Assembly (NCBI GenBank): GCA_964427615.1
Contig: CAYRUR010000001.1
Location: 119,303-183,302 of the forward strand
Direction of reading: 5' to 3'
Length of the DNA stretch: 64,000 nt
Source of the DNA: an uncultured Gammaproteobacteria bacterium
GTDB taxonomy: Bacteria; Patescibacteriota; Microgenomatia; Levybacterales; GWA1-39-11
The position numbers and the translations under genes were made by a program. The notes under the pieces were generated by a model. That model ran no database searches. It had not been told where the DNA came from and saw only the letters and a list, made by a program, of their open reading frames with translations. Positions 3,966 to 19,646 of the stretch are shown here, piece by piece. The stretch's first letter is position 1, and each line of letters begins with the position of its first letter.

Positions 3966-6900
3966 TAGCTAAAACAATATCATATGCTGAATACAGTATG
4001 GAGCCAGCTGAAGTCTATAATGAGTCTCATGTGTCAGAAAGTGGAAAACTTTCCTCTAGTGGTACTTCTCATGAACATCAAAAGGGAAAAAGACCCTTTC
4101 TTCAAGTAGTTGCTCGAGATGGAGAGGCTGTAAGTGCTACAGGACAAGATAGCTTAGATGATGTAGCCGGTCCTGAACCTATTCTTTTTCCAAGCTACCT
4201 TCAAGAAGAACCCTCACCACTTTCTATAAATTCTCAAGAAAAAGGAAAGGTAAAACACGACCTCACACCTCATGAATTATTTGAAGAAGAAAGGTGGGAA
4301 GAATCTTCTTTAGAAGAGAAAATAAGAGAACGTGTGAGTCAAGTAAAAAGTAAAAGAGAAATGGAAAGCTACCTCAGTAAAAATGGTCCTTTAGTAAATG
4401 AAATGCGAAAAGCTATTCAAGAATATGCTAGTTTGCGACTTAATAATATAAGAGAGATAGATCGTATGACCGCAGAACTAACTGGAAAATTTTACCAACA
4501 GCTGGAAGAGGCAATTCATTCTATTGATGGTACTTTACTGGAAGAAGAATGGTTGCAAGAAGCTGAATCAAAACTAAATCCCTTTATTTACGGACTGCTG
4601 CATGCAAAAAATGAAGTAGAGGCATTGAGAATGGAGACAAATGTCTCCAATCCTTCCCCTGAGCCTAGTGGTAGTTTAAGTGCTACTACATCTATGCAGC
4701 CAGAGGAAGAAGGACCTGCGGGTGGTGGGGGAGCTGGTGGAGGAGAAGGAGGCGGCGGAGGAGCTGGTGGAGGATTTGAAGGAGGCTTTGATTATTGGTA
4801 TATCAGCCCTGAAAGAAAAAGGAGAAATCCTGAAGATATAGAGGATTTAGCGGTGGGAATTATGTTTTCAGACCCTCAAAAATGGGGAAGTCTTATGTAT
4901 GTGCGCGAGCGCTATGAAAGTGCTCCAGGAGAACGTGATGGAGCTATTGAAATAGTAGAAAATGGTACAACAAGAATATTAACGCAAGGAGAACATCCGA
5001 TGTTTGATACTGTTTATATACCAAATGAGGGAGAAAGAATTACCTTGAAAGATGGAGATCAAGTTATAGATGAAGAAGTTGGAGCGTCAACTGAACAAGG
5101 TAGAGTAAGAGGAAAGACTACAGAGATAGAAGTTTTAGAAATGAATAGATATATTATGCATGATGGACAAAAATATGAGGTTGGAACTTATGAAATAAGA
5201 AGAATTAAGGGAACTAACGATGTTGTGGATATTGATCCTCGAGATATAAAAGGAAAAATTACAGAGGTATTTAACAAGGATAACTTTTTAAGGTGGGATA
5301 GAGAGCGGGTAGTAACCATTGATATGCAAGATCCTTTTGCTCCGCAAAAATTTTATTCTGAAGTAGATGTGAGTGATCCTAACTGGCTGCGGGGGCATTT
5401 TCCAATGGGACAACTTATGAAAGAAGACAGATGGTGGTTGCTTAAAAATGGAGAAAAAGTTACCGATTTACAGGATGCAACTGTCGACGTGCTTTCTGGA
5501 GCTGGAAATATTCTTAATGGAGGAAAAGAATATAACTTTGTAATGCCTAAAGAATCAGAACTGGTAAAGTATCTCGATGGGGTATATTCTCAGAATACAT
5601 GGACACGAGAATCGGGTGGTATTAGTTATCTTCGTAGGATTTTTGAAATGCCACAAAATTTAAGTGATCACGGAGAATATGATGAGGTTGGGGGAGATAT
5701 TAAAGTTGGGAGTGCTATTAGAAGCATGACTTTGCATTGGTACTACTCGACAGATTTTGAAAAACTAGTGGAGTTATATGGTGAAGATTATACTTTTTTT
5801 AAACGTTCTTATTGGGAAAATGCGCTAAGCAAAGTTGCAAAACAAACAAGTTTTAAAAGTGACTTATCAGAAGAAGAGCTAAGAGCATCAGGTGATTGGG
5901 GTGGGCTTGTTCAATACGATATAAATACCTTTTTCAAAGGGGATGAGGATACTATGGATATCTTTAAAAGAAACAATGATGGGTCATTTGTATTAGAGAA
6001 TGGGAAAAAAGTTGTAGATCCTCAGAAGGCTATGGAAATAGTTAAAAAAATTAACATCTTTGTTCCTCAAAGACCTGACGCAGATAAGTTGGTTGTGAGA
6101 GATGTTTTAAAAAATGGTATTGGAGAATTTTATGGCCTTCAAGATGATAAAGACAACCTCAATTTCGCTGAACTAATCGCTTTTCGGATTTGTTATCCAA
6201 CAGGAATTAATGCCAGGAATGATATTGTACATGCAGGCATGGACGCTTGGGTAAAGTGGCAACGTACTTTTTGGTACCGTAATAAGCAATTGGATGGAGA
6301 TAGAGGAGGATCTGCCGGAAATTACTATAATATGCAAATTTTTAGACAACTAGGAGCAGATTTTTTTACAGGGATTGATACATTAACGGGTAATTCAATT
6401 CTCCAACTTATGGAGGAGGCAGAAAAAGAAGTTAGAAGAGATAGTGAAAATAATAGAGGTGTGAGGACACAAAAAATTTTGGATACCCAAAAAAAGTTGC
6501 GGTTCTCAGCTGATTCTCAGAGACAATTTCTTTCAAATCAAATTAAAAATGCTGCGGGAATGTACGAGAGTCTCACTGACCTAAAAGAAATAAGCTTCCA
6601 AAAATATTCAAAACTCGTTGAGGGTAGACTGGAAATAGATGAAGCAGCGTTTAGTGAAGACCTTAAAGGAGGAGTAATAAAACCTTTGCGTTATATGATT
6701 AGTACTTGGAAACAGCTTGATTTTGGAGAAGAAGAGAGAACAATGATTCCAATAATCAACGAGAAAGGAGAAGCAAAGGAGGGAGAATATAAGACAGTAA
6801 CAAGGCTTGAAGCATATTTTGGAGAAGCAACAGCAGCAGTTTTTAGGAATGATAAGGCCTGGGATTTTGGAGATGCATTAAAAGGGAGAATAGACAGTCT

Positions 6901-7522
6901 TTCCGAGGCGGATTCACGTAAGGCAATAGAAGATTATCTGTCATTTCTTGTTAACCCTAATCCCGAAAAAGATGAAGATAAAGGAAAAGCAGATAAAACG
7001 GCTAAAAAATTAGCATCAGCATACTCTCAAGAATTTATAGGAAAAGATTTTTCAGAACTCACTAGCATTGAGAGAAAGCAACTTTTAACTAAATTAACTG
7101 AAACAAAAGGAATGCTTTCCATTGGAGAAGCAAAAGTAGTAAATGATGTACATAGAACTCATCTTTTTAAATATGCAGTGGCATTTTACGCAGGTACTCA
7201 ATTGCTTGCTCATAGAAAAAATGTTAGCCGCAATTATTTTGAAAAATACGACATTATAGAAAGTCGTACCTTTTTACGTCTTCTTGATTCTATTCCTGGT
7301 AAAGCAATTTTTGATGAAGATGATCTGAGAAATACGCGAGTTGATGGAAATTTCTTTGGAAAAGATATGTATGGAAGGGACTATATGGAGTTTATTAAAG
7401 CACTGTCTAATACTACGACAGGTAAATTATGGACTGGTCACTTAATACTTTTGCTTTTAGGTGCAATGAGAGAAGCTTTTGGAGAGTCTACAGAAGAACT
7501 TACAAAAGGAATTGCTGCTTAA
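3923..7522 (+). CDS. Very large (about 1170-1200 aa) soluble protein of unknown function with an internal poly-Gly tract
   Basis: Uninterrupted 3.6-kb ORF with no transmembrane segments and acidic, coiled-coil-like N-terminal regions. Low-complexity GPAGGGGAGGGEGGGGGAGGGFEGGF tract near nt 4715-4790. A start at 3923 would overlap the upstream gene by 43 nt, so the ATG at 3998 (MEPAEV) is the more likely start. Confidence 0.6.
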   Translation: MLFFYNVRMRERLTLAKTISYAEYSMEPAEVYNESHVSESGKLSSSGTSHEHQKGKRPFLQVVARDGEAVSATGQDSLDDVAGPEPILFPSYLQEEPSPLSINSQEKGKVKHDLTPHELFEEERWEESSLEEKIRERVSQVKSKREMESYLSKNGPLVNEMRKAIQEYASLRLNNIREIDRMTAELTGKFYQQLEEAIHSIDGTLLEEEWLQEAESKLNPFIYGLLHAKNEVEALRMETNVSNPSPEPSGSLSATTSMQPEEEGPAGGGGAGGGEGGGGGAGGGFEGGFDYWYISPERKRRNPEDIEDLAVGIMFSDPQKWGSLMYVRERYESAPGERDGAIEIVENGTTRILTQGEHPMFDTVYIPNEGERITLKDGDQVIDEEVGASTEQGRVRGKTTEIEVLEMNRYIMHDGQKYEVGTYEIRRIKGTNDVVDIDPRDIKGKITEVFNKDNFLRWDRERVVTIDMQDPFAPQKFYSEVDVSDPNWLRGHFPMGQLMKEDRWWLLKNGEKVTDLQDATVDVLSGAGNILNGGKEYNFVMPKESELVKYLDGVYSQNTWTRESGGISYLRRIFEMPQNLSDHGEYDEVGGDIKVGSAIRSMTLHWYYSTDFEKLVELYGEDYTFFKRSYWENALSKVAKQTSFKSDLSEEELRASGDWGGLVQYDINTFFKGDEDTMDIFKRNNDGSFVLENGKKVVDPQKAMEIVKKINIFVPQRPDADKLVVRDVLKNGIGEFYGLQDDKDNLNFAELIAFRICYPTGINARNDIVHAGMDAWVKWQRTFWYRNKQLDGDRGGSAGNYYNMQIFRQLGADFFTGIDTLTGNSILQLMEEAEKEVRRDSENNRGVRTQKILDTQKKLRFSADSQRQFLSNQIKNAAGMYESLTDLKEISFQKYSKLVEGRLEIDEAAFSEDLKGGVIKPLRYMISTWKQLDFGEEERTMIPIINEKGEAKEGEYKTVTRLEAYFGEATAAVFRNDKAWDFGDALKGRIDSLSEADSRKAIEDYLSFLVNPNPEKDEDKGKADKTAKKLASAYSQEFIGKDFSELTSIERKQLLTKLTETKGMLSIGEAKVVNDVHRTHLFKYAVAFYAGTQLLAHRKNVSRNYFEKYDIIESRTFLRLLDSIPGKAIFDEDDLRNTRVDGNFFGKDMYGRDYMEFIKALSNTTTGKLWTGHLILLLLGAMREAFGESTEELTKGIAA
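4714..4791 (+). repeat. GGn/GGA low-complexity tract encoding a poly-Gly linker inside the 1199-aa ORF
   Basis: ggtgggggagctggtggaggagaaggaggcggcggaggagctggtggagga: short direct GGN/GCT repeats that are slippage-prone. Confidence 0.6.
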
Positions 7523-7570: not shown

Positions 7571-9397
7571 CTAGATCGGGCTCCGTTCTCTTCTACTAGA
7601 TCTACGATTTAGTAGTCTTCTTTTTTCATCATCTGTAAGATTTGGCAACCTTCTTATTTCCTCCTCAGTATATGGCTGCAAATCATCTCGCAGACCTAAC
7701 CCCCAATTTCTTAATGAACTGCTATTGCTGCGTGAAAGACGTTGAGCTAACGGTCGCTTTATTCTTTCATCATATGCAGTACTGAGAGGGCCTGTAGCTA
7801 CACCCTCTTTATTTCTTGCAAAGAGCACATTCTTAGGGATTCCTGCAAATGGTTTTACTACTTGTGCTCCAATCCCTAAGCTGTTTGGAATAGCTTGTGC
7901 ATATTTAAGTGAAGGAGTATTAAGCTTGTCTTTGATCATGTTAATAACTTCTGGGGTGATAAGAATAGTTGCCATACCAAAAAGAGCTGATAATGCTTCT
8001 GGAGCACCGGGATTACCAATAAGTGGAGGAGTGAAGTACTCTTCTCCTGGAGCAAAGGCGCTCATAAGCACCTTTGCAATCAAAAACATAAATATAGTTG
8101 CTGGAAATACAAGTAAGTACGTGATGATATATTTTAGCCATGCTCCGAAACCTAGACCTGAGTTAGGAATAATTCCCATGGCAATCCAAAAAGGAGAGAG
8201 TATAACTGCTAGAAGTACTCTGATGTAAGACGTAAGGAGTCGGAACCAAATTCGTACAAGTGTTATAAATATAGCTATAGATACAATGAAAAACATAATC
8301 ATTCCTCCTAATATCCCGGCCACACTACCAATAACATTGACGTCCTCGGTACAATCCCACATCGCATCAAGACTAATACCAGTAACCCGGGAGATAATAC
8401 CTCCATCTGATTCAATATGTTGAATTACACAATCTTGGTATACTGGACTGACTGACTGAGGTATGAGAAATATAATACGAGTAACAGTTTGGGTAATGGT
8501 ATTATGAAAAATTCCTAAATTATTTATTACATTGGAGATTACTTCTCCTGTACCCAAAGCTATCTTAAAAGGTATTATGAAAAATCCTATTCCGAGTTCG
8601 CTATCGGTGAAAGGAAGGGGAAGATTGTATAGGTGATTGGCAAAGCCAAAAGGAGTGTTAAAAGCATATTTAAGCATATTTCCTAATGCTCCTGATTCAT
8701 CAAGGGGTGAGAAAGTAGCAAATAAGAGCAGTAATAACACCCACATCATGTCTATCAGAAATCCTGCAATGGGAAAGGAAAAGGTGACAAGCACAAGCGT
8801 AATAATAATTTTAGGAATTTGATTTTGAACAGCCATTACTGCTCTATCATTGAGTTTAAATCTGAACATAATGCCAAGGCCAATGATAACTACAATAAGG
8901 CTAAAAAGAAGATACACAATATTTCTAAACTGTATCCAAATCTTCTGAATAGGTTTTAAGCCTTCAAACCCTATTCCTCCCTCTTCTGCAGCTTGTGCTT
9001 TTTTAGAAAACCCAAAGTTGTGAGAAAGGTAGGTGGCGTAATCATTGCTAGATATAGGGAAGTTGTACGTCATTCCTATAAGTTGTCCCATTTGATTGAC
9101 AGCACCACCATTATTATCTACATAGGTAATCTTCTTTGTTTGAGGATCAACTCCAAGGCATTTTCCGTTAGGTGAAATAGGATCTGCACCTATTACAAAA
9201 CAAGTATAAGTAGAAAAGAACTCAATGAATAAGCTCTGGGTGAATGTGTGGAGGTTTTTTGGTACCGATGCGTCTACATTGGGCTCCAGGTAGCTTGATG
9301 ACTCTATGTTTTGTGCGCTCACTGGAAAAACAAAAAACTTAGTAAAAAGAAGCGTAAAGACAAAAAAGGTCAAAATGGGCAATAACAACTTTTTCAT
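7571..9397 (-). CDS. Polytopic membrane protein with an N-terminal extracytoplasmic domain and a basic C-terminal tail; possible VirB6/TrbL-like channel component
   Basis: Signal peptide, then a ~130-aa Cys-containing soluble region, then at least six predicted transmembrane helices, then an Arg-rich disordered C-terminus (RRLLNRRSSRRERSPI). This architecture matches VirB6-family proteins. No diagnostic motif was seen, so the assignment is topological only. Confidence 0.4.
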   Translation of the reverse strand: MKKLLLPILTFFVFTLLFTKFFVFPVSAQNIESSSYLEPNVDASVPKNLHTFTQSLFIEFFSTYTCFVIGADPISPNGKCLGVDPQTKKITYVDNNGGAVNQMGQLIGMTYNFPISSNDYATYLSHNFGFSKKAQAAEEGGIGFEGLKPIQKIWIQFRNIVYLLFSLIVVIIGLGIMFRFKLNDRAVMAVQNQIPKIIITLVLVTFSFPIAGFLIDMMWVLLLLLFATFSPLDESGALGNMLKYAFNTPFGFANHLYNLPLPFTDSELGIGFFIIPFKIALGTGEVISNVINNLGIFHNTITQTVTRIIFLIPQSVSPVYQDCVIQHIESDGGIISRVTGISLDAMWDCTEDVNVIGSVAGILGGMIMFFIVSIAIFITLVRIWFRLLTSYIRVLLAVILSPFWIAMGIIPNSGLGFGAWLKYIITYLLVFPATIFMFLIAKVLMSAFAPGEEYFTPPLIGNPGAPEALSALFGMATILITPEVINMIKDKLNTPSLKYAQAIPNSLGIGAQVVKPFAGIPKNVLFARNKEGVATGPLSTAYDERIKRPLAQRLSRSNSSSLRNWGLGLRDDLQPYTEEEIRRLPNLTDDEKRRLLNRRSSRRERSPI

Positions 9398-10417: not shown

Positions 10418-10867
10418 ATGCTTTGCCCTTATTGCAGAAAAAATGGAACTGAAGTCGTTGAGACACGAATTGCCGAAGACGGAACAAATATTAGAAGAAG
10501 AAGATCATGTTCTTCCTGTGGCAAACGGTTTACTACTTATGAAAGAATTGAGAATGTAACATTAGTAGTAAAGAAAAAAGACGGAAGACGTGAGCAATTT
10601 GATAGAGATAAGTTACGAGCAGGAGTGATCCGGGCATGTGAGAAAACAAGTGTTTCAATTGATAAAATTCATGATATAGTAGATGTTATTGAAAGAGAAC
10701 TACGTAACGGTGAATCAGTAGAGGTTGAAAGTAGAAAGATAGGACAGCTTACGGCTGTTAAACTGAAAAAAGTAGATAAGGTAGCATATATTCGATTTGC
10801 AAGTGTTTTTAAGCGTTTTGTTGATTTAGACGATTTTGAGAAAGAATTAAAAAGATTATTAAAATAA
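10418..10867 (+). CDS. nrdR: Transcriptional repressor NrdR (Zn-ribbon plus ATP-cone)
   Basis: N-terminus MLCPYCRKNGTEVVETRIAEDGTNIRRRRSCSSCGKRFTTYERIE is a canonical NrdR zinc ribbon. It sits immediately upstream of an RNR gene. Confidence 0.9.
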   Translation: MLCPYCRKNGTEVVETRIAEDGTNIRRRRSCSSCGKRFTTYERIENVTLVVKKKDGRREQFDRDKLRAGVIRACEKTSVSIDKIHDIVDVIERELRNGESVEVESRKIGQLTAVKLKKVDKVAYIRFASVFKRFVDLDDFEKELKRLLK

Positions 10868-10868
10868 T

Positions 10869-13283
10869 ATGAAACTTGAAGGATTATCAGAAAAAGTATT
10901 TTTAGACAGATATGCTCTCAAAGATAAAAAGGGCAACCCTATCGAAAAAGACCCTCGCCAGATGTGGAGGAGAATTGCTAAGGCAGTAGCAGAGCAAGAA
11001 GAAGGAGAAAGTAAAAAGATTTGGGAAAAAGAATTTTATGAGGCTCTAAAGGGTTTTAAGTATGTTCCTGGCGGAAGAATCCATGCAGGCGCGGGAACTG
11101 GGTATCAAGTTACTTATTATAATTGTTTTGTAATTCCTTCTCCAAAAGATTCACGAGGTGGTATTATTGATACCCTCAAGCAAATGGTTGAAATTATGGC
11201 ACACGGTGGTGGTGTTGGTATCAACCTCTCCTCTCTTCGTCCTCGCGGTTTTCGAGTTAAGAAAGTAAATGGATTCTCCTCTGGTCCTTGTAACTGGGCA
11301 GAGCTGTTCTCTATTGCTACCAAAGATATTATTCAACAGGGTGGTACTCGTCGAGGTGCACTTATGTTAATGCTTTGGGACTGGCATCCTGATGTAGAAG
11401 AATTTATTACCGTAAAACAAGACTTACTCCGTATCAATGGAGCTAATCTTTCCGTATGTGTGTCTGATAAATTCATGGATGCAGTTGAAAAAGATGGAGA
11501 CTGGGATCTGGTTTTCCCTGATAAAGATGATCCAGATTATGATGAAAAATGGGATGGAGACCTAGAGGCTTGGAAAAAGCTTGGTAAAAAAGTAATAGTA
11601 CACAAAACAGTAAAGGCACGCAAGATATGGGATCTGATTGCTGAAGCTGCTTGGAAATCAGCAGAGCCAGGAGTAGTCTTCATGGAGCGCTACAACAAGC
11701 TATACAACAACTGGTACTGGAACAGCATCAATTGTGTAAATCCATGTGGAGAAGAAGGACTTCCACCATGGGGAGTATGTAACTTGGGTTCTATCAACCT
11801 TTCTGCTTTTGTCAAAGGGTATGAAGTAGATAAAAAAGGAGAGTTTGATTTTGAGACATTAAAGAAAGTAGTGAGAGTAGGAGTGAGATTCCAAGACAAT
11901 GTAGTGAGTATGGATCCATATATTTTTGAAGGAATTCGCAAGACACAGCTTGAGGGAGAAAGAAGAATTGGTCTTGGTACCATGGGTTTGGGAGATGCAC
12001 TAATTAAATTACACTTACGTTATGGTTCACCTGAAGCATTGGAGTTTATAGATGAAGTGTATAAGCTTATTAGAGACGAAGCATACAGAGCGTCATCTGA
12101 GATTGCCAAAGAAAAAGGAGCATTTCCAAAGTTTGATAAAGAACTTTTCCCACAAGGAGCATTTATCAAGCAACTTCCAAAAGACATCCAGAAGATGATT
12201 AAAGAGCAAGGGATTCGCAACTCGCTTCTTTTGATGCAAGCACCAACAGGGTCAATCTCTTTGATGGCTAACACCACTTCTGGTATAGAGCCGGTATATG
12301 AATTTGAATTTATCAGGAGAAGTAGAATTGGGGAGCATGTAATCAGACACCATTTGTATGATGAATGGTACAAAGTACATGATAAAGAACTGGAAGAAGG
12401 AAAAATACAAAGACCGGATTACTTTGTCTCTGCAAATGATCTTACTCCAGAAGAGCATGTGGAAACACAGGGTATCATCCAAAAATATGTGGATGCTTCT
12501 ATCTCAAAGACAGTAAATGCACCTAAGACGCATACTGTAGAGGATGTAAAAAGACTATATACCTTAGCTTACAAATTAGGTTGTAAAGGGATAACCTATA
12601 TGAGAGAAGGATCACGAGTCGGCGTATTAGAAAGAAAAGAGGACAAAAAAGAAGAAGTAAAGGAAGAAATAAAGCAATTACCACCTATTATGCGCAGGCC
12701 AATGGTCATGCAAGGAGTAACATATAAAACGCAAACACCACTGGGGAGTACCTTTATTACCATCAATGTAGACAAGGATGGTAATCCTTTTGAAGTCTTT
12801 ATTAATGCTGGGAAATCAGGTTCTGATGTCATGGCTATGGCAGAGGCATTAGGGCGCATGATTTCATTTGCTTTAAGAATGCAGGGTCCTATTGATTCAC
12901 GGGAAAAAATAGAAAGAATTATTGCCCAAATGACGGGTATCGGAGGTGCAAGAACAGTTGGCTTTGGTCCTAATAGAGTGAGATCTTTGCCTGATGCTGT
13001 AGCCAAGATCCTCGCTGATCACTTTGAATTTAAGGTAAATGGAAAAGTTACTGACGTAAAAAAGAATATAAAAGCTGATGCTATGGAGCCAGCTAGTCTT
13101 ACAAATGGACACGCAGCAGCAAATGAACATGCAGTGATGGCCTTACAACCATCTTTATTGCACGCTGAATCTGCTTCTTCTACAAATGATAGTTTTGATA
13201 TCTGTCCTGATTGTGGAACATCAGGTTTAGCACACGAAGAAGGTTGTATAAAATGTTACTCATGTGGATATTCCGCATGTTAA
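10869..13283 (+). CDS. nrdJ: Class II (adenosylcobalamin-dependent) ribonucleotide reductase with a C-terminal Zn-ribbon
   Basis: NrdJ-type N-terminus (VFLDRYALKDKKGNPIEKDPRQMWRRIAKAVA). Active-site region NPCGEEGLPPWGVCNLGSINL. C-terminal CPDCG...CIKCYSCG zinc ribbon. Length 804 aa. A start codon 2 nt after the nrdR stop indicates an operon. Confidence 0.85.
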   Translation: MKLEGLSEKVFLDRYALKDKKGNPIEKDPRQMWRRIAKAVAEQEEGESKKIWEKEFYEALKGFKYVPGGRIHAGAGTGYQVTYYNCFVIPSPKDSRGGIIDTLKQMVEIMAHGGGVGINLSSLRPRGFRVKKVNGFSSGPCNWAELFSIATKDIIQQGGTRRGALMLMLWDWHPDVEEFITVKQDLLRINGANLSVCVSDKFMDAVEKDGDWDLVFPDKDDPDYDEKWDGDLEAWKKLGKKVIVHKTVKARKIWDLIAEAAWKSAEPGVVFMERYNKLYNNWYWNSINCVNPCGEEGLPPWGVCNLGSINLSAFVKGYEVDKKGEFDFETLKKVVRVGVRFQDNVVSMDPYIFEGIRKTQLEGERRIGLGTMGLGDALIKLHLRYGSPEALEFIDEVYKLIRDEAYRASSEIAKEKGAFPKFDKELFPQGAFIKQLPKDIQKMIKEQGIRNSLLLMQAPTGSISLMANTTSGIEPVYEFEFIRRSRIGEHVIRHHLYDEWYKVHDKELEEGKIQRPDYFVSANDLTPEEHVETQGIIQKYVDASISKTVNAPKTHTVEDVKRLYTLAYKLGCKGITYMREGSRVGVLERKEDKKEEVKEEIKQLPPIMRRPMVMQGVTYKTQTPLGSTFITINVDKDGNPFEVFINAGKSGSDVMAMAEALGRMISFALRMQGPIDSREKIERIIAQMTGIGGARTVGFGPNRVRSLPDAVAKILADHFEFKVNGKVTDVKKNIKADAMEPASLTNGHAAANEHAVMALQPSLLHAESASSTNDSFDICPDCGTSGLAHEEGCIKCYSCGYSAC

Positions 13284-13289
13284 AAACAG

Positions 13290-13478
13290 TTAGTTTGTTG
13301 GTGTATGAAAAGTTAATAGTGAGTATTAGGTAAGAAGGGTGAAAATCCCTCACAGAGCCGCTACTGTTATAGTCAGAAAACGATACTCATGAGAAAGCCC
13401 GAGCTTGGCATTAAATATGGAGTCCTCTCGGGTGATCTTCTTTACTGAACAGGTAAAGAGAGAAACGAAGAGGATTTT
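13290..13478 (+). promoter_or_regulatory. Cobalamin (B12) riboswitch-like leader, copy 1
   Basis: Contains AAGGGUGAAAAUCCCUCACAGAGCCGCUACUGUUAUAG, which matches the conserved GGUGAAAAUCC...GC.G..CCGC.ACUGU core of Firmicutes B12 riboswitches. A B12-box-like AAAGCCCGAGCUUGGC follows, then a hairpin plus U-run before the ATG at 13482. Confidence 0.6.
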
Positions 13479-13481
13479 TTT

Positions 13482-13883
13482 ATGGCTACACTACTTAAAA
13501 ATAAAAAAGCTTTTTTAATACTCATCGGAATTACATTCGTTATTGTTGCTCTTGTTTTTGTTTTTCCAAGTATTCCTGCACAAAAGAGTGAAACAGAAAC
13601 TGTTATTACGCCAACAGTGGCTATTTCCAATCAAACTCAAAACATAGATTCTTTTACGTATCAAGGTGAAGAAGGTAAAAGTGCATTCGAGATCTTAGAA
13701 GTAAAAACAAAAGTAGAGATAGATAAAGTAGGTCTTGTTTCTGCTATCAATGGAAGAAAAGCAGATAACAGCAAAAGAGAGTTTTGGGCATTTTATGTCA
13801 ATGGCAAGTTAGCAGAAGTTGGTCCCAAAGATTACATTACGAAATCAACGGACAAAATAGAATGGAAAATAGAGACTTACTAA
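13482..13883 (+). CDS. Membrane-anchored DUF4430-like protein (putative transcobalamin-like cobalamin-binding protein)
   Basis: N-terminal transmembrane anchor. C-terminal region with the FWAFYVNGKLAEVGPKDY...IEWKIE pattern typical of DUF4430. First gene after the B12 riboswitch. Confidence 0.45.
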   Translation: MATLLKNKKAFLILIGITFVIVALVFVFPSIPAQKSETETVITPTVAISNQTQNIDSFTYQGEEGKSAFEILEVKTKVEIDKVGLVSAINGRKADNSKREFWAFYVNGKLAEVGPKDYITKSTDKIEWKIETY

Positions 13884-13884
13884 T

Positions 13885-14421
13885 ATGAAAAAATCCCACT
13901 TAGTAACTGCAACGCTGATTATTTTCTGTGGAGCACTTTTCCGATTTCTCCCTCATCCACCAAATTTTGCGCCTATTGCAGCTATGGCTCTTTTTGCAGG
14001 AGCGTATATGGACAAAAAATATGCTTTCTTTATTCCTTTTATAGCAATGTTTGTCTCAGATATTTTTCTGGGTTTTCATAATACGATGCCTTTTGTCTAT
14101 GTCAGCTTTTTTCTCGTAGGAGTTTTGGGAATGATGCTTAAAAAGCACTCTAAACCTCAAATGGTTATAGCAGCGGCTTTTGTGTCTTCCCTGTTATTTT
14201 TTGTGATTACCAATATTGGAGTATGGCTGAGTTCAGGGCTCTATGAGCAAAATACAAAAGGATTAGCGGAAGCATTTGTCCTTGCCATTCCTTTTTTCAA
14301 AAACACGCTGATGGGAGACTTGTTGTTTACTAGTGCTTTTTTTGCTCTGTTTGAATTTTTCAAAGCAACTTTGTTGAAAGAAAGGTTGTTGCATGAAAAA
14401 GCTTCTCAACCCAAAAGCTAA
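13885..14421 (+). CDS. Small polytopic membrane protein, ECF-transporter S-component-like (putative cobalamin or precursor uptake)
   Basis: 178 aa with about 5 predicted transmembrane helices. Start codon 2 nt after the previous stop. The context is a B12 riboswitch followed by PduO. Confidence 0.4.
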   Translation: MKKSHLVTATLIIFCGALFRFLPHPPNFAPIAAMALFAGAYMDKKYAFFIPFIAMFVSDIFLGFHNTMPFVYVSFFLVGVLGMMLKKHSKPQMVIAAAFVSSLLFFVITNIGVWLSSGLYEQNTKGLAEAFVLAIPFFKNTLMGDLLFTSAFFALFEFFKATLLKERLLHEKASQPKS

Positions 14422-14444: not shown

Positions 14445-15017
14445 TTGGTTTTTAATATTTCTATTATGCCTATTTATACAAAAACTGGAGACAAAGGAAA
14501 AACAGCATTACGGACTAATGAGCGGGTATGGAAAGATTCAGTACGCGTTGAAAGTTATGGAACAGTTGATGAGCTTAATGCGTATTTAGGGGTAGTGCTT
14601 TCTTATATTGATACAGATGCAAAAAAAGAATTGCGTTATGTAGCAGATCTAGTGGTTACAGTACAAAATGATTTGTTTTTTATTGGTTCTTATATTGCCA
14701 ACCCTGGTGAGAAGCGGGACCTGACAGTGCTTAACAAGCATATTACGTATTTTGAGGATGAGATAGATGGTATGACAGAGCAAATGCCAGAACTTAAAAA
14801 TTTTATTCTTCCAGGAGGAGGAAAGGTAGGAGCATCCTTGCAGTACGCACGTACTATTTCCAGAAGAGCGGAGAGAAAATTAGTTTCTTTGCACAAGGCA
14901 GAAGGGGTTGAAAAAGAAATTTTGCAGTATATAAATAGACTTTCTGACTTATTATTTACGTTGTCTCGCTTTGCCAATTACGTAGAAAAAAAGAAAGAGA
15001 TAATTTGGTCTTTGTAA
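14445..15017 (+). CDS. pduO: ATP:cob(I)alamin adenosyltransferase, PduO type
   Basis: N-terminus MPIYTKTGDKGKTALRTNERVWKDSVRVESYGTVDELNAYLG is the PduO-type ATR signature. Length about 190 aa. Confidence 0.85.
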   Translation: MVFNISIMPIYTKTGDKGKTALRTNERVWKDSVRVESYGTVDELNAYLGVVLSYIDTDAKKELRYVADLVVTVQNDLFFIGSYIANPGEKRDLTVLNKHITYFEDEIDGMTEQMPELKNFILPGGGKVGASLQYARTISRRAERKLVSLHKAEGVEKEILQYINRLSDLLFTLSRFANYVEKKKEIIWSL

Positions 15018-15256
15018 CGGGTGAATGAGGTGTAAATCCTCAGCTATGCCGTAGCTGTGATCTTAGGTAAATACTAAGAAAGTCAGATCCCCGTCTGTTT
15101 CAATATTTAATTTGAGAACAGGAAAAGTCTTTCGAGTCCATGTACCATGCGGTACAGGACCATGCGCTGAATAGTGCATGGCAAGAGCAATTTTGTATCC
15201 TTATCCTGCCTTCTCGAAATTCTGTTACAGAACAAAATGAGAAGGTTTTTTTATTG
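15018..15256 (+). promoter_or_regulatory. Cobalamin riboswitch-like leader, copy 2, with a rho-independent terminator as expression platform
   Basis: GAGGUGUAAAUCCUCAGCUAUGCCGUAGCUGUGAUCUUAGG parallels the copy-1 core (GGUG.AAAUCC...GC...CCG.AGCUGU). A B12-box-like AAGUCAGAUCCCCGUCUG follows. The terminator ccttctc...gagaagg plus TTTTTTT lies at 15209-15252, just before the ATG at 15265. Confidence 0.5.
15209..15252 (+). terminator. Intrinsic terminator (riboswitch expression platform)
   Basis: Stem CCTTCTC/GAGAAGG enclosing the sub-hairpin ttctgttacagaa, followed by a 7-T run. Confidence 0.55.
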
Positions 15257-15264
15257 TTATTGTT

Positions 15265-16665
15265 ATGGATCTTGAATCAAGAACAGTTACTTATCAAATA
15301 CAAAGAAATGAAGCTTTTTATGCTGATAATTCTTCTTTAGAAGGAGAATTTCATGATTTACAAAGAGAGTGGATTCGTGAAGAGGAAGATGAATGGTACT
15401 TGTTGCCTGGAACAGGATTTAATGTGAAGCTTCAAGTTGAGTTATTACGCAAGGATCTTGAAGAAGGATTAGAAAAAGGAGAATCGTATGAGGACATTAT
15501 TGAGAAGTGGCTCCAAAAAACAGAACAGGACATTCATGGGTTTAAAATTGAGTATTTGTGTGAGGGCTTGTTATTTCCTATTATGTTGGACAAAGAAGTA
15601 GTAAACGCAGAAGAAAGAATTGTTGCGCCTTTATATGGAGGAAAACTGTTTGTAGACACAGTGAGTGAGCAAGAGCGTTTGGGAAGTGTAAAAAAAGCTA
15701 TCGTGGGTGATCCAGAAACAGGCAAAGAAGGAATAGAACACTTTTTACTCACCGCTCATCCTGGATCTGTTTCAGTTATGACCAGTCCTCCTGGTTGGAG
15801 TGGTTTTGAAGGAATTACGTACCCTGACTCTCAGACTTATATTTGGCAGATACAGGAAGACAGGTCTATTAGAGGGTTTACGGTGCGTACTGATATGGAG
15901 GTAAAAGAAAACATAAAGTTATTAGAAACACTAGGTGAAGATATGAGTGCTATGAAAGGCAAAAATGAACAAGAAAGGTTGGCAGGAATTGTCGGAACAC
16001 CGGTGTTTTTAAGGGGAAATGATGAAAAGCAGTGGAGTATCGAAGATATTGTGAATGCTATTAGATCAGTAAAACACACAAAATCAGCGTATAAAGAAAG
16101 AGGTTTTGATGAAATTTATGATCAGCTTGAAAATCCTGAGTCTTTATGGACGCTTGATGAAACAACACGTAAGCTCGTTGCAGAGTTTAGAAGATATGTG
16201 TGGGATCAAGTATATAATGGTGAAGGAGATAGAGAGAAAAACATTCAAAGAGCATTGGGAATGACTGTTCTGGAACTGGCTAAGAGAATACGTAGACCTA
16301 AGAGAGAAGAGATAGCATACGACGATGAGTGGGTAGGTGAGGAATATAGTTTAGGAGGTGGATTAGTGTCAGGAGATCGGTATCGTGATGTTTTATCTGA
16401 TGTGCAACAATTAGGAGGATGTAATGGCGGAGGAGGTGAGGGTGAAAGTATGCCTGATAGCTATATTGTTAACTCTATTACTCCTCGAATTGGTGTGAGA
16501 AATGAAGTTGATTACTCGAAAGATCCAAATTTATGTAGATGTAGTAATAGCCTTCCTCATTTTCACTGTCCTGGTAAAAAAGAAGGAAAGCCTTGTAAAG
16601 AAAAAATTATCTATGGAAAAGGAATTAAAAAGTGTCCTAGTTGTGGAGAAGGAAAAAAATGTTAA
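15265..16665 (+). CDS. Hypothetical acidic cytoplasmic protein with a Cys-rich C-terminus; putatively B12-riboswitch-controlled
   Basis: 466-aa ORF with no transmembrane segments and no recognisable enzyme motif. C-terminal CRCSNSLPHFHCPGKKEGKPCKEKIIYGKGIKKCPSCGEGKKC suggests metal binding. Confidence 0.55.
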   Translation: MDLESRTVTYQIQRNEAFYADNSSLEGEFHDLQREWIREEEDEWYLLPGTGFNVKLQVELLRKDLEEGLEKGESYEDIIEKWLQKTEQDIHGFKIEYLCEGLLFPIMLDKEVVNAEERIVAPLYGGKLFVDTVSEQERLGSVKKAIVGDPETGKEGIEHFLLTAHPGSVSVMTSPPGWSGFEGITYPDSQTYIWQIQEDRSIRGFTVRTDMEVKENIKLLETLGEDMSAMKGKNEQERLAGIVGTPVFLRGNDEKQWSIEDIVNAIRSVKHTKSAYKERGFDEIYDQLENPESLWTLDETTRKLVAEFRRYVWDQVYNGEGDREKNIQRALGMTVLELAKRIRRPKREEIAYDDEWVGEEYSLGGGLVSGDRYRDVLSDVQQLGGCNGGGGEGESMPDSYIVNSITPRIGVRNEVDYSKDPNLCRCSNSLPHFHCPGKKEGKPCKEKIIYGKGIKKCPSCGEGKKC

Positions 16666-16814
16666 ACAAAAATTCGCAAGAGAATTGTGATGTCTGTTTT
16701 AAAATCAAATGTCGCGGATGTGGGTGGGAGCCAACAGAGGAAGAGGTAGCAAAAATCCAAGCAGGAGAACTGAGAACTTGTCCTTTGTGTGGTTGGCAGC
16801 CAGGAGAAAAATAA
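16659..16814 (+). CDS. Small (51 aa) zinc-ribbon protein, start overlapping the previous stop (ATGTTAA)
   Basis: MLNKNSQENCDVCFKIKCRGCGWEPTEEEVAKIQAGELRTCPLCGWQPGEK has a CxxC...CxxC...CPLCG arrangement. It is absent from the ORF track because it is under 60 aa. Confidence 0.4.
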   Translation: MLNKNSQENCDVCFKIKCRGCGWEPTEEEVAKIQAGELRTCPLCGWQPGEK

Positions 16815-16828
16815 GCTAGTATAAAAGA

Positions 16829-17533
16829 GTGAAGTCTTTTTTACTTAATCTCCTTTTTCCAAAACGCTGTATTCAGTGTAAAAGGCTTGGTTCTTTTGTC
16901 TGTTCTGATTGTTTTGCACACATTCAGTATGCTTCTTTGTCTCTTTGTCCCATGTGTCTTAGACCTTCAGTTGATGGTCTCACGCATCCTGCCTGTTCCA
17001 AACCTCTCGGACTTGATGGGCTGATTACGGTGGTAGAGTATAAAGGAATTATTAAGAAACTGCTCTACCAACTCAAATATGCACCTTATCTTACGAGCCT
17101 AACTACAGTTATTAAAAATCTTTCATATGAGGCATTAATTCAAGATGAAAGTTTTATGTATATTAAAGCCCAAAATCCTTTTCTTATTCCTGTGCCTTTG
17201 CATGTAAAAAAAGAAAGAAAAAGAGGGTATAACCAAGCAACACTTATTGCAAGGCAGATAGCAGATTCATTTGATCTTTCTCTTGAAAATAAAGTGCTTA
17301 TAAGAAGTAAACATACAAAGCCTCAATTTAAGCTCTCAAAAGAAGAAAGAAAAGAAAATATAAAAGATGCTTTTGAGGTGACTGCAAAAGGAAAGGAAGT
17401 TATAAATGGTGCTACCATTTTTGTAGTAGATGATATTGCTACTACCTGTTTTACCCTGCGTTCATGCGCTAAAATCCTCAAAAGAAATGGAGCAAAAAAA
17501 GTCTACGGTTTAGTATTTGCCAAGGAGTATTGA
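16829..17533 (+). CDS. comFC: ComF/ComFC-family phosphoribosyltransferase-domain protein (competence-related)
   Basis: N-terminal Cys cluster (CIQCKRLGSFVCSDCF...CPMC) and a C-terminal PRTase motif (TIFVVDDIATTCFTL). Confidence 0.7.
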   Translation: MKSFLLNLLFPKRCIQCKRLGSFVCSDCFAHIQYASLSLCPMCLRPSVDGLTHPACSKPLGLDGLITVVEYKGIIKKLLYQLKYAPYLTSLTTVIKNLSYEALIQDESFMYIKAQNPFLIPVPLHVKKERKRGYNQATLIARQIADSFDLSLENKVLIRSKHTKPQFKLSKEERKENIKDAFEVTAKGKEVINGATIFVVDDIATTCFTLRSCAKILKRNGAKKVYGLVFAKEY

Positions 17534-19073: not shown

Positions 19074-19238
19074 ATGTTTATTGTATAGTAAGTCCCACTA
19101 CACTTCCACTTCCGCTAAAGCTCCAGTGGACAAGAAAGTTTCGTGGGACACACTTCGCAGAGGCCAATTGAGGGAGTAGTGGAATATTGAGTGGCTGTGC
19201 CACACGAAGCTCTGTACTGTAAAGTACGGAGCGAAGTG

Positions 19239-19646
19239 TGGAGATGGGGAGGAGTGACCTCCCGTCCAAAAAATACAAATCACAACGTCTACAAGCATAG
19301 TCAGTTTTTAAGTGTCGTCATATCCTTATCCAACTGACAGGAAAAAATATGACCAAGGCTTTTTAAGAGCACAAAAGACAAGCCAAATCTTTTGCTCTTT
19401 CCTCACCTGGGTTATTGCCTATAAGGAAGCGATGAGGGACTCATCTTATAGACAGCTCGCATTAAGCTGCGAATGCAAAAGCGGGAGTTACCCCAACTTT
19501 TGGCATGGCATCAGCAAAAACTTGCCTGATACCGCGGCTGATGGATTTACCTTCAGCATGTATTATTTGATCCTGTTTTATGACGCATGAATCAACGTCA
19601 GCTTGCTGTTGTAAAAGTGCATTTCCTGTCGAATCAATTCATCCCC
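19239..19646 (-). ncRNA. ssrA: tmRNA (SsrA)
   Basis: Read on the minus strand, the 5' end GGGGAUGAAUUGAUUCGACAGGAAAUGC matches the tmRNA consensus GGGG.UGA.U.GGAUUCGAC.GG. The 3' end GGACGGGAGGUCACUCCUCCCCAUCUCCACA forms a T-arm and an acceptor stem. The acceptor 5'-GGGGAUG pairs with 3'-CAUCUCC, giving the G3:U70 Ala identity pair. An internal tag-like frame ends ...PAFAFAA-TAA and is followed by a hairpin. The gene abuts smpB. Confidence 0.7.

Follow-up and report, generated by a model that had tools for sequence, protein, structure and literature searches.

A cobalamin riboswitch after pduO precedes X466, an undescribed Cys-rich protein family of Patescibacteria

We analysed a 64,000-nucleotide (nt) stretch of DNA, referred to below as the window (contig CAYRUR010000001.1 of assembly GCA_964427615.1; GTDB Patescibacteriota, Levybacterales), with a focus on a cobalamin (B12) riboswitch, leader 2, and on the 466-aa protein encoded after it, X466. 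Both belong to a co-directional gene string that runs from NrdR (10418–10867) through a class II ribonucleotide reductase (RNR, NrdJ) with a TSCPD domain (10869–13283, + strand; PF02867, PF00317, PF12637) to a first B12 leader, leader 1. The first gene after leader 1 encodes a DUF4430 protein (13482–13883), followed by an ECF-S-like membrane protein of family DUF6580 (13885–14421) and a PduO-type ATP:cob(I)alamin adenosyltransferase (14463–15017, + strand; PF01923, E 6.6e-56). Leader 2 then precedes X466 (15265–16665, + strand), the 51-aa six-Cys zinc-ribbon open reading frame (ORF) Zn51 (16659–16814, + strand) and a ComF-family protein (16829–17533, + strand; DZR_2, Pribosyltran and TIGR00201 matches). 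The RNR, already recognised as B12-dependent in an initial annotation of this DNA, is the presumed consumer of adenosylcobalamin (AdoCbl) in the string. Its C-terminus (13200–13283) is of the type known as the Cys-rich C-terminal domain (CRD), with a six-Cys array, CPDCG...CIKCYSCGYSAC, after the TSCPD domain.

An Rfam scan of the whole window at curated gathering thresholds (cmscan; E-values refer to 64 kb, both strands and 4227 families) returned five matches, among them RF00174 (Cobalamin) at 14975–15112 (+ strand), with 36.0 bits against a gathering threshold of 31.5 and E = 1.8e-5. A local search gave the same match at E 6e-7. The alignment spans the full model (positions 1–189) and has the conserved core GAGGUGUAAAUCCUC (15027–15041), with its segment GGUGUAAAUCC (15029–15039), and the B12 box in the correct order; the B12-box-like segment AAGUCAGAUCCCCGUC (15080–15095, + strand) aligns with the B12-box region of the consensus. 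A second cobalamin riboswitch after pduO had been proposed at 15018–15256: the element stands, but its start does not, as the aptamer begins 43 nt upstream, inside pduO. It shares these 43 nt with the 3′ end of pduO (stop codon 15015–15017), and the 5′ strands of its outer helices lie within the final 14 pduO codons. The peripheral (P6-type) extension is almost gone, with 59 model positions reduced to 8 nt. From the aptamer end to the X466 ATG the distance is 153 nt, on the sense strand. Counterpart aptamers occupy the same position in L014, L016, L024, L025 and L026, which belong to a set of 31 related loci that includes several duplicates; the set was gathered from genome and metagenome collections with a 13-sequence X466 alignment and through look-ups of exact proteins.

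Downstream of the aptamer lies a structured expression platform (15113–15208, + strand) with three hairpins, a conserved post-aptamer motif (AGUCUUUCGAGUCC, 15126–15139) and two candidate antiterminator strands (15113–15123 and 15130–15136). It is followed by an intrinsic terminator (15209–15252, + strand; free energy ΔG −12.8 kcal/mol, z-score −3.0), in which a 5′ arm CCUUCUCG (15209–15216) pairs with a 3′ arm UGAGAAGG (15238–15245) ahead of a U7 run (15246–15252). The fold of 15113–15256 as a whole has a z-score of −5.1. The strong terminator hairpin described before the ATG is thus present with its U-run, at a spacing of 12 nt from the ATG at 15265 and not 10. A simple consensus terminator scan of the window did not pick up the 15209–15252 hairpin because its loop exceeds 8 nt. 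The same hairpin with a U-run touching the start codon recurs in L001, L002, L003, L005, L014, L018, L020, L021, L023, L026, L027 and L029.

Comparison of the leaders showed that the platform is shared across the lineage. Every one of the 16 terminator-type leaders carries the motif, with the consensus YCCCGAGCAGG, immediately 3′ of its aptamer; the terminator 5′ arm reads CCU(U)CUCG(GG), and the 3′ arm reads GAGGAGG or GAGAAGG (Shine-Dalgarno-like) and leads into the U-tract beside the start codon. The motif mimics the 3′ arm and can pair with the 5′ arm in all 16 leaders (ΔG −8.0 to −17.6 kcal/mol). Between 0 and 82 of 1000 shuffled motifs matched the real pairing, and at most 20 of 1000 did so in 10 of the 16 leaders. 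Motif and arm also covary, as UUUCGAG/CUCGAAA in the window, UUCCGAG/CUCGGAA in L014 and L026, CCCGAG/CUCGGG in L001, GCUCGAG/CUCGAGU in L020 and CCCGAG/CUUGGG in L023. The platform is a classical layout of mutually exclusive terminator and antiterminator. Four loci (L006, L016, L024 and L025) carry the motif a few nucleotides ahead of the start codon and have no terminator, which suggests translational control there.

The same platform is found behind leader 1 (13320–13389, + strand), where the sequence up to 13481 holds the motif GCCCGAGC, a terminator and a U-run directly before the DUF4430 ATG. The first leader had been placed at 13290–13478 as an RF00174 candidate. An aptamer match is found there, but of the AdoCbl-II type instead (RF01689, 35.1 bits, below the gathering threshold of 36.5), and its counterpart in L026 scores 45.9 bits on RF01482. 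Leaders 1 and 2 are therefore tandem B12 switches of different classes in a single co-directional gene string.

We regard 14975–15252 as almost certainly a genuine cobalamin riboswitch; that it acts through transcription termination, and how it responds to ligand, we infer from its architecture. Without ligand, the strand just 3′ of the aptamer (15126–15139, with 15113–15123 as an additional candidate) would pair with the terminator 5′ arm, and RNA polymerase would continue into X466 and Zn51. With cobalamin bound, the folded aptamer would hold this strand, the CCUUCUCG/UGAGAAGG hairpin and its U7 run would form, and transcription would end. Such an OFF polarity, in which ligand favours the terminator, is suggested because the same platform serves the B12-uptake/PduO leader and because OFF switches make up nearly all of the cobalamin riboswitches that have been characterised. 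Leader 2 resembles the riboswitches of clan CL00101 (RF00174 Cobalamin, RF01482 AdoCbl, RF01689 AdoCbl-II) in its aptamer core, B12 box, 5′ leader position and terminator-type platform, and in that B12 uptake and activation genes are controlled in the same cluster. Unlike typical members, it has a nearly deleted peripheral extension and an aptamer that reaches into the preceding coding sequence; one gene string holds two switches of different classes, of which it is the second; it controls an undescribed family; and its platform motif YCCCGAGCAGG is the lineage's own. The RNA thus adds a member to a known family, one whose platform is lineage-specific and whose arrangement is tandem and mixed-class.

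We next turn to the pairing of riboswitch and gene in relatives. A cobalamin-clan aptamer lies ahead of X466, or of a PduO-X466 pair, in 20 of 20 loci with adequate upstream sequence, the window included; 12 score at or above the Rfam gathering threshold, seven below it, and one was recognised by eye. Directly before X466, aptamers at or above gathering occur in the window (36.0 bits), L002 (49.7), L015 (48.1), L016 (40.4), L024 (60.6), L025 (53.3) and L029 (39.0), and aptamers below it in L014 (38.4 bits against a threshold of 50), L026 (30.5 against 36.5), L006 (27.2 against 31.5) and L005 (25.4 against 31.5). Before the PduO-X466 pair, gathering is reached in L003 (53.0 bits), L018 (39.8), L023 (38.2), L027 (44.7) and L028 (46.4), with lower scores in L004 (39.5 against 50), L020 (33.8 against 50) and L021 (25.8 against 36.5, with a 32-nt insertion). 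The case found by eye, in L001 and its duplicates (5560–5790), reads GGGAAAUCCGGUGUGAAUCCGG...CUGUGCCGCAACGGUAAG...GAGUCCGAAAUCCGCG with large insertions, followed by the lineage-typical platform. No Rfam model scores on it, a 381-nt search included, and it may be a divergent aptamer variant. The ORF is thus conserved and linked to a B12 leader, as the initial annotation had anticipated. Since three classes (RF00174, RF01482 and RF01689) occupy the same slot, the pairing is maintained by selection and does not descend as a single inherited block.

X466 was described as an acidic, cytoplasmic protein of 466 aa without a recognisable domain, and all of this agrees with our results. Its isoelectric point is 4.93 and it has no hydrophobic segment. 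Searches of Pfam, NCBIfam, PADLOC and PHROGs gave no match, the latter two leaving a defence or phage role unsupported, and a single-sequence search of PDB sequences gave none either. Pfam searches with 43 family members and 10 N-terminally extended members returned nothing meaningful, and profile searches of the PDB with the family returned only a weak eL43-like ribbon match and de novo designs. A word-indexed search found 83 homologs, none of which carries a name, those with taxonomy being labelled Curtissbacteria or Patescibacteria. When 1.84 billion cluster representatives were searched exhaustively with a profile, the family grew to 400 members, 308 of them at E ≤ 1e-30; the best 150 of the 400 are 358–583 aa long, and 149 of these 150 match the profile in a single stretch. 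Named sources are Patescibacteria save for two records, whose labels look mis-binned. The literature on B12, riboswitches or adenosyltransferases in Patescibacteria and the candidate phyla radiation yielded nothing on the family. X466 is thus an undescribed family, with no Pfam model, no PDB fold relatives and no paper found. In one locus, L030 (4827–6297), X466 is broken into four ORFs (71, 89, 231 and 98 aa), either through frameshift errors in a long-read assembly or as a pseudogene.

The family is marked by the motifs LPGTGF, EYLxEGLxFPI, ERxGxVK, TSPxGWSG, YPDSQTY, GFTxRTD, LPGCNGGG and SxxPR and by a C-terminal CPxC...CxxC ribbon. S174, C386 and C435 do not vary among 31 highly divergent members, in which F52, E96, R138, P175, C457 and C460 are nearly invariant. 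C386 sits in a Gly/Ser-rich loop (GCNGGG) that AlphaFold predicts to be disordered; GCxGG is found in 179 of 212 full-length members, 117 of which have a Cys within the last four residues. The Cys-rich tail reads as the initial annotation had described it, C424-x-C426...H432-x-H434-C435-P-G...C444...C457-P-S-C460-G...C466, and in 43 sequences C435, C444 and C457 are invariant and C460 is at least 90% conserved. The two-knuckle Cys pattern of a zinc ribbon (CPxC...CxxC) is conserved across the family, and the Cys/His-rich segment C424–C466 is predicted to bind metal. It has seven Cys and two His, enough to suggest that it holds more than a single metal site. The ribbon weakly resembles the rRNA-binding ribbon of eL43/L37ae (E ~1e-3).

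The tail of the window protein (16534–16662, residues 424–466; DPNLCRC...PHFHCPG...C.H.I.VG.GI..CP.CGEGKKC) is one of at least three types and is present in 24 of 215 family sequences. Tails of this type are 54–74% identical while the protein bodies are only ~20–25% identical. The module DPNLCRC...CGEGKKC was not found outside the X466 family: a single-sequence tail search gave no candidates, and the extra matches of an alignment-based search were only fragments of frameshifted X466.

AlphaFold2 with the family alignment modelled full-length X466 at a pLDDT (per-residue confidence) of 82 and a pTM (predicted template-modelling score) of 0.76, and the core, residues 99–300, at 95 and 0.91. Foldseek returned nothing at E ≤ 0.001 for the model, and the best structural neighbours of the core are all PAS, LOV or Cache ligand-binding domains, at marginal similarity. 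These small-molecule-binding domains are the closest structural likeness in the model, and we describe the core (about residues 99–300) as having a predicted PAS-like ligand-binding topology, which is not a claim of membership in the PAS superfamily. Several other assignments were discarded. A new RNR or glycyl-radical enzyme was rejected for want of a barrel and an activase, and a lipoprotein box at LGGC because it lies at residue 385 and a signal peptide is absent. Self-cleavage of the Ntn, intein or hedgehog type at G|C was dropped with no supporting fold, and LOV-like flavin-Cys photochemistry was dropped with the conserved Cys outside the PAS-like core.

The overlapping 51-aa CxxC zinc-ribbon ORF noted initially holds up as a conserved gene. 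Zn51 overlaps the X466 stop by 7 nt, an arrangement that suggests translational coupling. Orthologs in six loci (L003, L013, L020, L021, L026 and L028) are 41–57% identical, keep all six Cys and overlap or adjoin X466, and other pipelines annotate the gene in L026, L028 and L031. Against Pfam it gives a weak YnfU match. In L004 the X466 homolog (5890–7281) carries a Zn51-like C-terminal ribbon at 7072–7203 (CVEIRCRRPGCGW...LKSCP; tblastn E 7e-8), a fusion which, by a Rosetta-stone argument, implies that X466 and Zn51 work together physically.

Gene order ties X466 to PduO. PduO lies directly upstream in 16 loci, usually after NrdR and the class II RNR, and this adjacency holds for orthologs ~20% identical to the window protein, including one on a 1.08-Mb Patescibacteria contig. 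PduO and X466 share 4 nt in L027 and L028, and 3–4 nt separate them in L020 and L021. A single riboswitch stands ahead of both in seven loci (L003, L004, L018, L020, L021, L023 and L027/L028). The order NrdR, class II RNR, (riboswitch), PduO, X466, Zn51, ComF is conserved even at ~20–37% X466 identity, every RNR adjoining an X466 locus has the TSCPD/CRD module, and the putative uptake genes (DUF4430, DUF6580) are in the same string in the window, L014, L026 and L030. Between the Zn51 stop and the ComF start are 15 nt, in which neither sequence reading nor the terminator scan of the window found a terminator, and ComF may be co-transcribed with X466 and Zn51. The tight spacing, the missing terminator and the order X466-Zn51-ComF, kept in several genomes, mean that ComF might be partly B12-controlled. 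ComF synteny is seen in L003, L013, L020, L021 and L026, with SmpB and tmRNA coming next in L026; ComF is not in the neighbourhood in L023–L025, L001 and L002.

This synteny is the strongest evidence on the function of X466. Because of the PduO/NrdR/RNR/uptake neighbourhood, X466 would belong to a B12-repressed module that leads from corrinoid intake to AdoCbl for the RNR. We put at about even the chance that X466 is a B12-repressed accessory of this uptake/PduO/NrdJ cofactor-supply route, and its role in B12 handling with PduO is likewise an evenly balanced proposition. In the proposed route, imported corrinoid (DUF4430 and the ECF-S-like DUF6580) would pass to X466/Zn51 with PduO, and the resulting AdoCbl to NrdJ. 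As a partner of the adenosyltransferase, X466 would take the corrinoid into its PAS-like pocket, where the invariant Cys386 on its flexible Gly-rich loop, aided by the metal-binding tail and Zn51, would remove the upper ligand and/or reduce the cobalt. This ligand-removal or reduction chemistry specifically is a tentative and rather doubtful suggestion; X466 may instead escort scarce cobalamin to PduO and NrdJ. Cys chemistry on B12 has a precedent in BtuM, where a Cys is an axial cobalt ligand and decyanation is Cys-mediated (PMC6072759). The known systems closest to this are accessory proteins of PduO-type adenosyltransferases and of B12 processing, such as the cobalamin reductase PduS, the decyanase-dealkylase CblC/MMACHC and BtuM. 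The gene for X466 is linked to pduO and under joint B12 control, the protein would be placed between uptake and adenosylation, and it has an invariant Cys that could ligate cobalt or attack cobalt-bound ligands. Among B12-processing proteins of solved structure, it shows no sequence or fold similarity to CblC/MMACHC, BtuM, adenosyltransferases or the B12-binding Rossmann domain.

Several observations weigh against this cofactor-supply role. In the window X466 has its own riboswitch, separate from that of PduO, and two antiterminator pairings are possible there, the alternative joining 15113–15123 with 15205–15216; the OFF polarity is itself a deduction. The PAS similarity of the modelled core is weak, and Pfam scans detected no canonical B12-binding motif or domain in the family. 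The family also seems confined to Patescibacteria, whereas PduO and NrdJ are widespread and function without X466 elsewhere. Finally, in a second context (L001, L002, L005, L006, L029 and P0065) X466 has no adjacent PduO or RNR, as judged from the locus only; there it keeps the riboswitch, amid secreted proteins or genes resembling those of a type IV secretion system.

The neighbouring RNR suggests another role, in which X466 would be an electron donor to its CRD, or a cofactor-loading or repair factor for it, and Zn51 a redox or adaptor subunit; we consider this unlikely. A six-Cys, zinc-binding CRD that passes electrons on occurs in about 70% of class II RNRs, and since neither thioredoxins nor glutaredoxin served as reductant of the CRD-type model enzyme studied, its native donor was reported as unknown (Loderer et al., PMC5704485). 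No later identification of this donor turned up in the literature. The TSCPD/CRD module of all adjacent RNRs, with the six-Cys end of the window NrdJ, speaks for such a partnership, as do the flexible invariant Cys and the often Cys-terminated tail of X466, which would fit a CRD partner, and the thioredoxin genes near X466 in L024 and L025. X466 also shares with the CRD, or with the separate NrdJb (PMC5704485), an array of conserved Cys at or near the C-terminus that probably binds zinc, and it is encoded beside a CRD-type NrdJ. Its spacing, C-x-C...H-x-H-C...C...C-x2-C...C, differs from the six-Cys CRD array, however, the TSCPD domain is absent, and homology to the CRD is undetectable. B12 repression in the manner of the uptake genes would be the wrong logic for a constant NrdJ helper, although it fits a loading chaperone induced by scarcity. 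The RNR itself lies upstream of the riboswitch, X466 is nearer to PduO than to NrdJ, some loci have no adjacent NrdJ, and the Actinobacteria, where the CRD donor problem was defined, lack the family. B12 repression, the confinement to Patescibacteria and the tighter link to PduO speak against X466 as a general reductant. The more specific proposal that CRD-type class II RNRs of Patescibacteria have in X466, with Zn51 as a detachable ribbon subunit, their missing physiological partner strikes us as quite improbable. If true, it would mean a thiol/metal protein that feeds electrons to the six-Cys tail, or loads or repairs AdoCbl, and is induced at B12 scarcity; X466 would then stand for both a novel fold and a novel type of accessory factor for RNR and B12. 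As regards the reductant or partner that CRD-type class II RNRs use natively (PMC5704485), X466 offers a concrete candidate.

Two other alternatives were weighed. X466 could be a B12-sparing back-up, in which X466 and Zn51, possibly with ComF, are on only in B12 starvation and provide deoxynucleotides independently of NrdJ, for instance from imported DNA or nucleosides that they process, or along some other route that needs no B12. Such a function would accord with the classical repression of B12-independent isozymes by B12 riboswitches, as for metE and nrdDG/nrdEF, with the terminator-free spacing and conserved order of X466-Zn51-ComF, and with the riboswitch kept on X466 in L002 and L029, where PduO and NrdJ are not nearby. 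Structure and profile comparisons gave X466 no similarity to RNR, glycyl-radical enzyme, nucleoside kinase, deoxyribosyltransferase or nuclease folds, however, and the absence of ComF beside many loci (L023–L025, L001 and L002) is a further point against it. The translational coupling to PduO, and the riboswitch that the two genes share, indicate cofactor supply, and we judge a back-up improbable. Of the two functions that the initial annotation had hedged between, synteny favours the B12-related factor over the B12-sparing one, because X466 is usually directly after PduO and a single riboswitch precedes the pair in seven loci. A sensor or regulator that joins the PAS-like core to a nucleic-acid-binding zinc ribbon and controls nucleotide or B12 metabolism is very unlikely. 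Its attraction lies in the PAS, LOV and Cache sensor domains that neighbour the core structurally, the likeness of the ribbon to that of eL43/L37ae, and the presence of NrdR, another zinc-ribbon regulator, in the cluster. No helix-turn-helix or other output domain was found in X466, however; the PAS similarity is marginal, a catalytic or ligand-coordinating part is suggested by the invariant Ser/Cys/Glu/Arg set and by the Gly-rich Cys loop, and tight translational coupling with an enzyme such as PduO would be unusual for a regulator.

Riboswitch regulons have repeatedly revealed new B12 biology, including B12-independent isozymes and transporters such as BtuM and CbrT. The family marked here by a B12 switch, which comes in three aptamer classes, numbers about 400 clusters and is without a Pfam model or detectable fold relatives. 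The hosts of X466 cannot make B12, and the B12-dependent enzyme visible in these clusters is the RNR. In such ultra-small, host-dependent bacteria DNA synthesis would depend on scavenged B12, which is probably limiting, and X466 could therefore be a key lineage-specific step in processing or delivering the cofactor. The window is also a clean model for B12 riboswitches of different classes that stand in tandem within one gene string.

Other features of these loci are recorded for completeness. The Rfam scan of the window also located a tmRNA (19236–19646, − strand). A secreted protein of ~510–610 aa (window 7571–9397, − strand; L001 7352–8929; L002 7249–8775; L029 4824–6377), without a Pfam match, recurs in many genomes beside X466 or the NrdR-RNR cluster. 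It is directly downstream of the riboswitch-controlled X466 in L001, L002 and L029 and could be co-regulated there. Three ~60-nt tandem repeats lie between the RNR stop and the riboswitch in L021 (5060–5240), and the class II RNR of L020 (1389–5015) contains an intein bearing a LAGLIDADG endonuclease domain.

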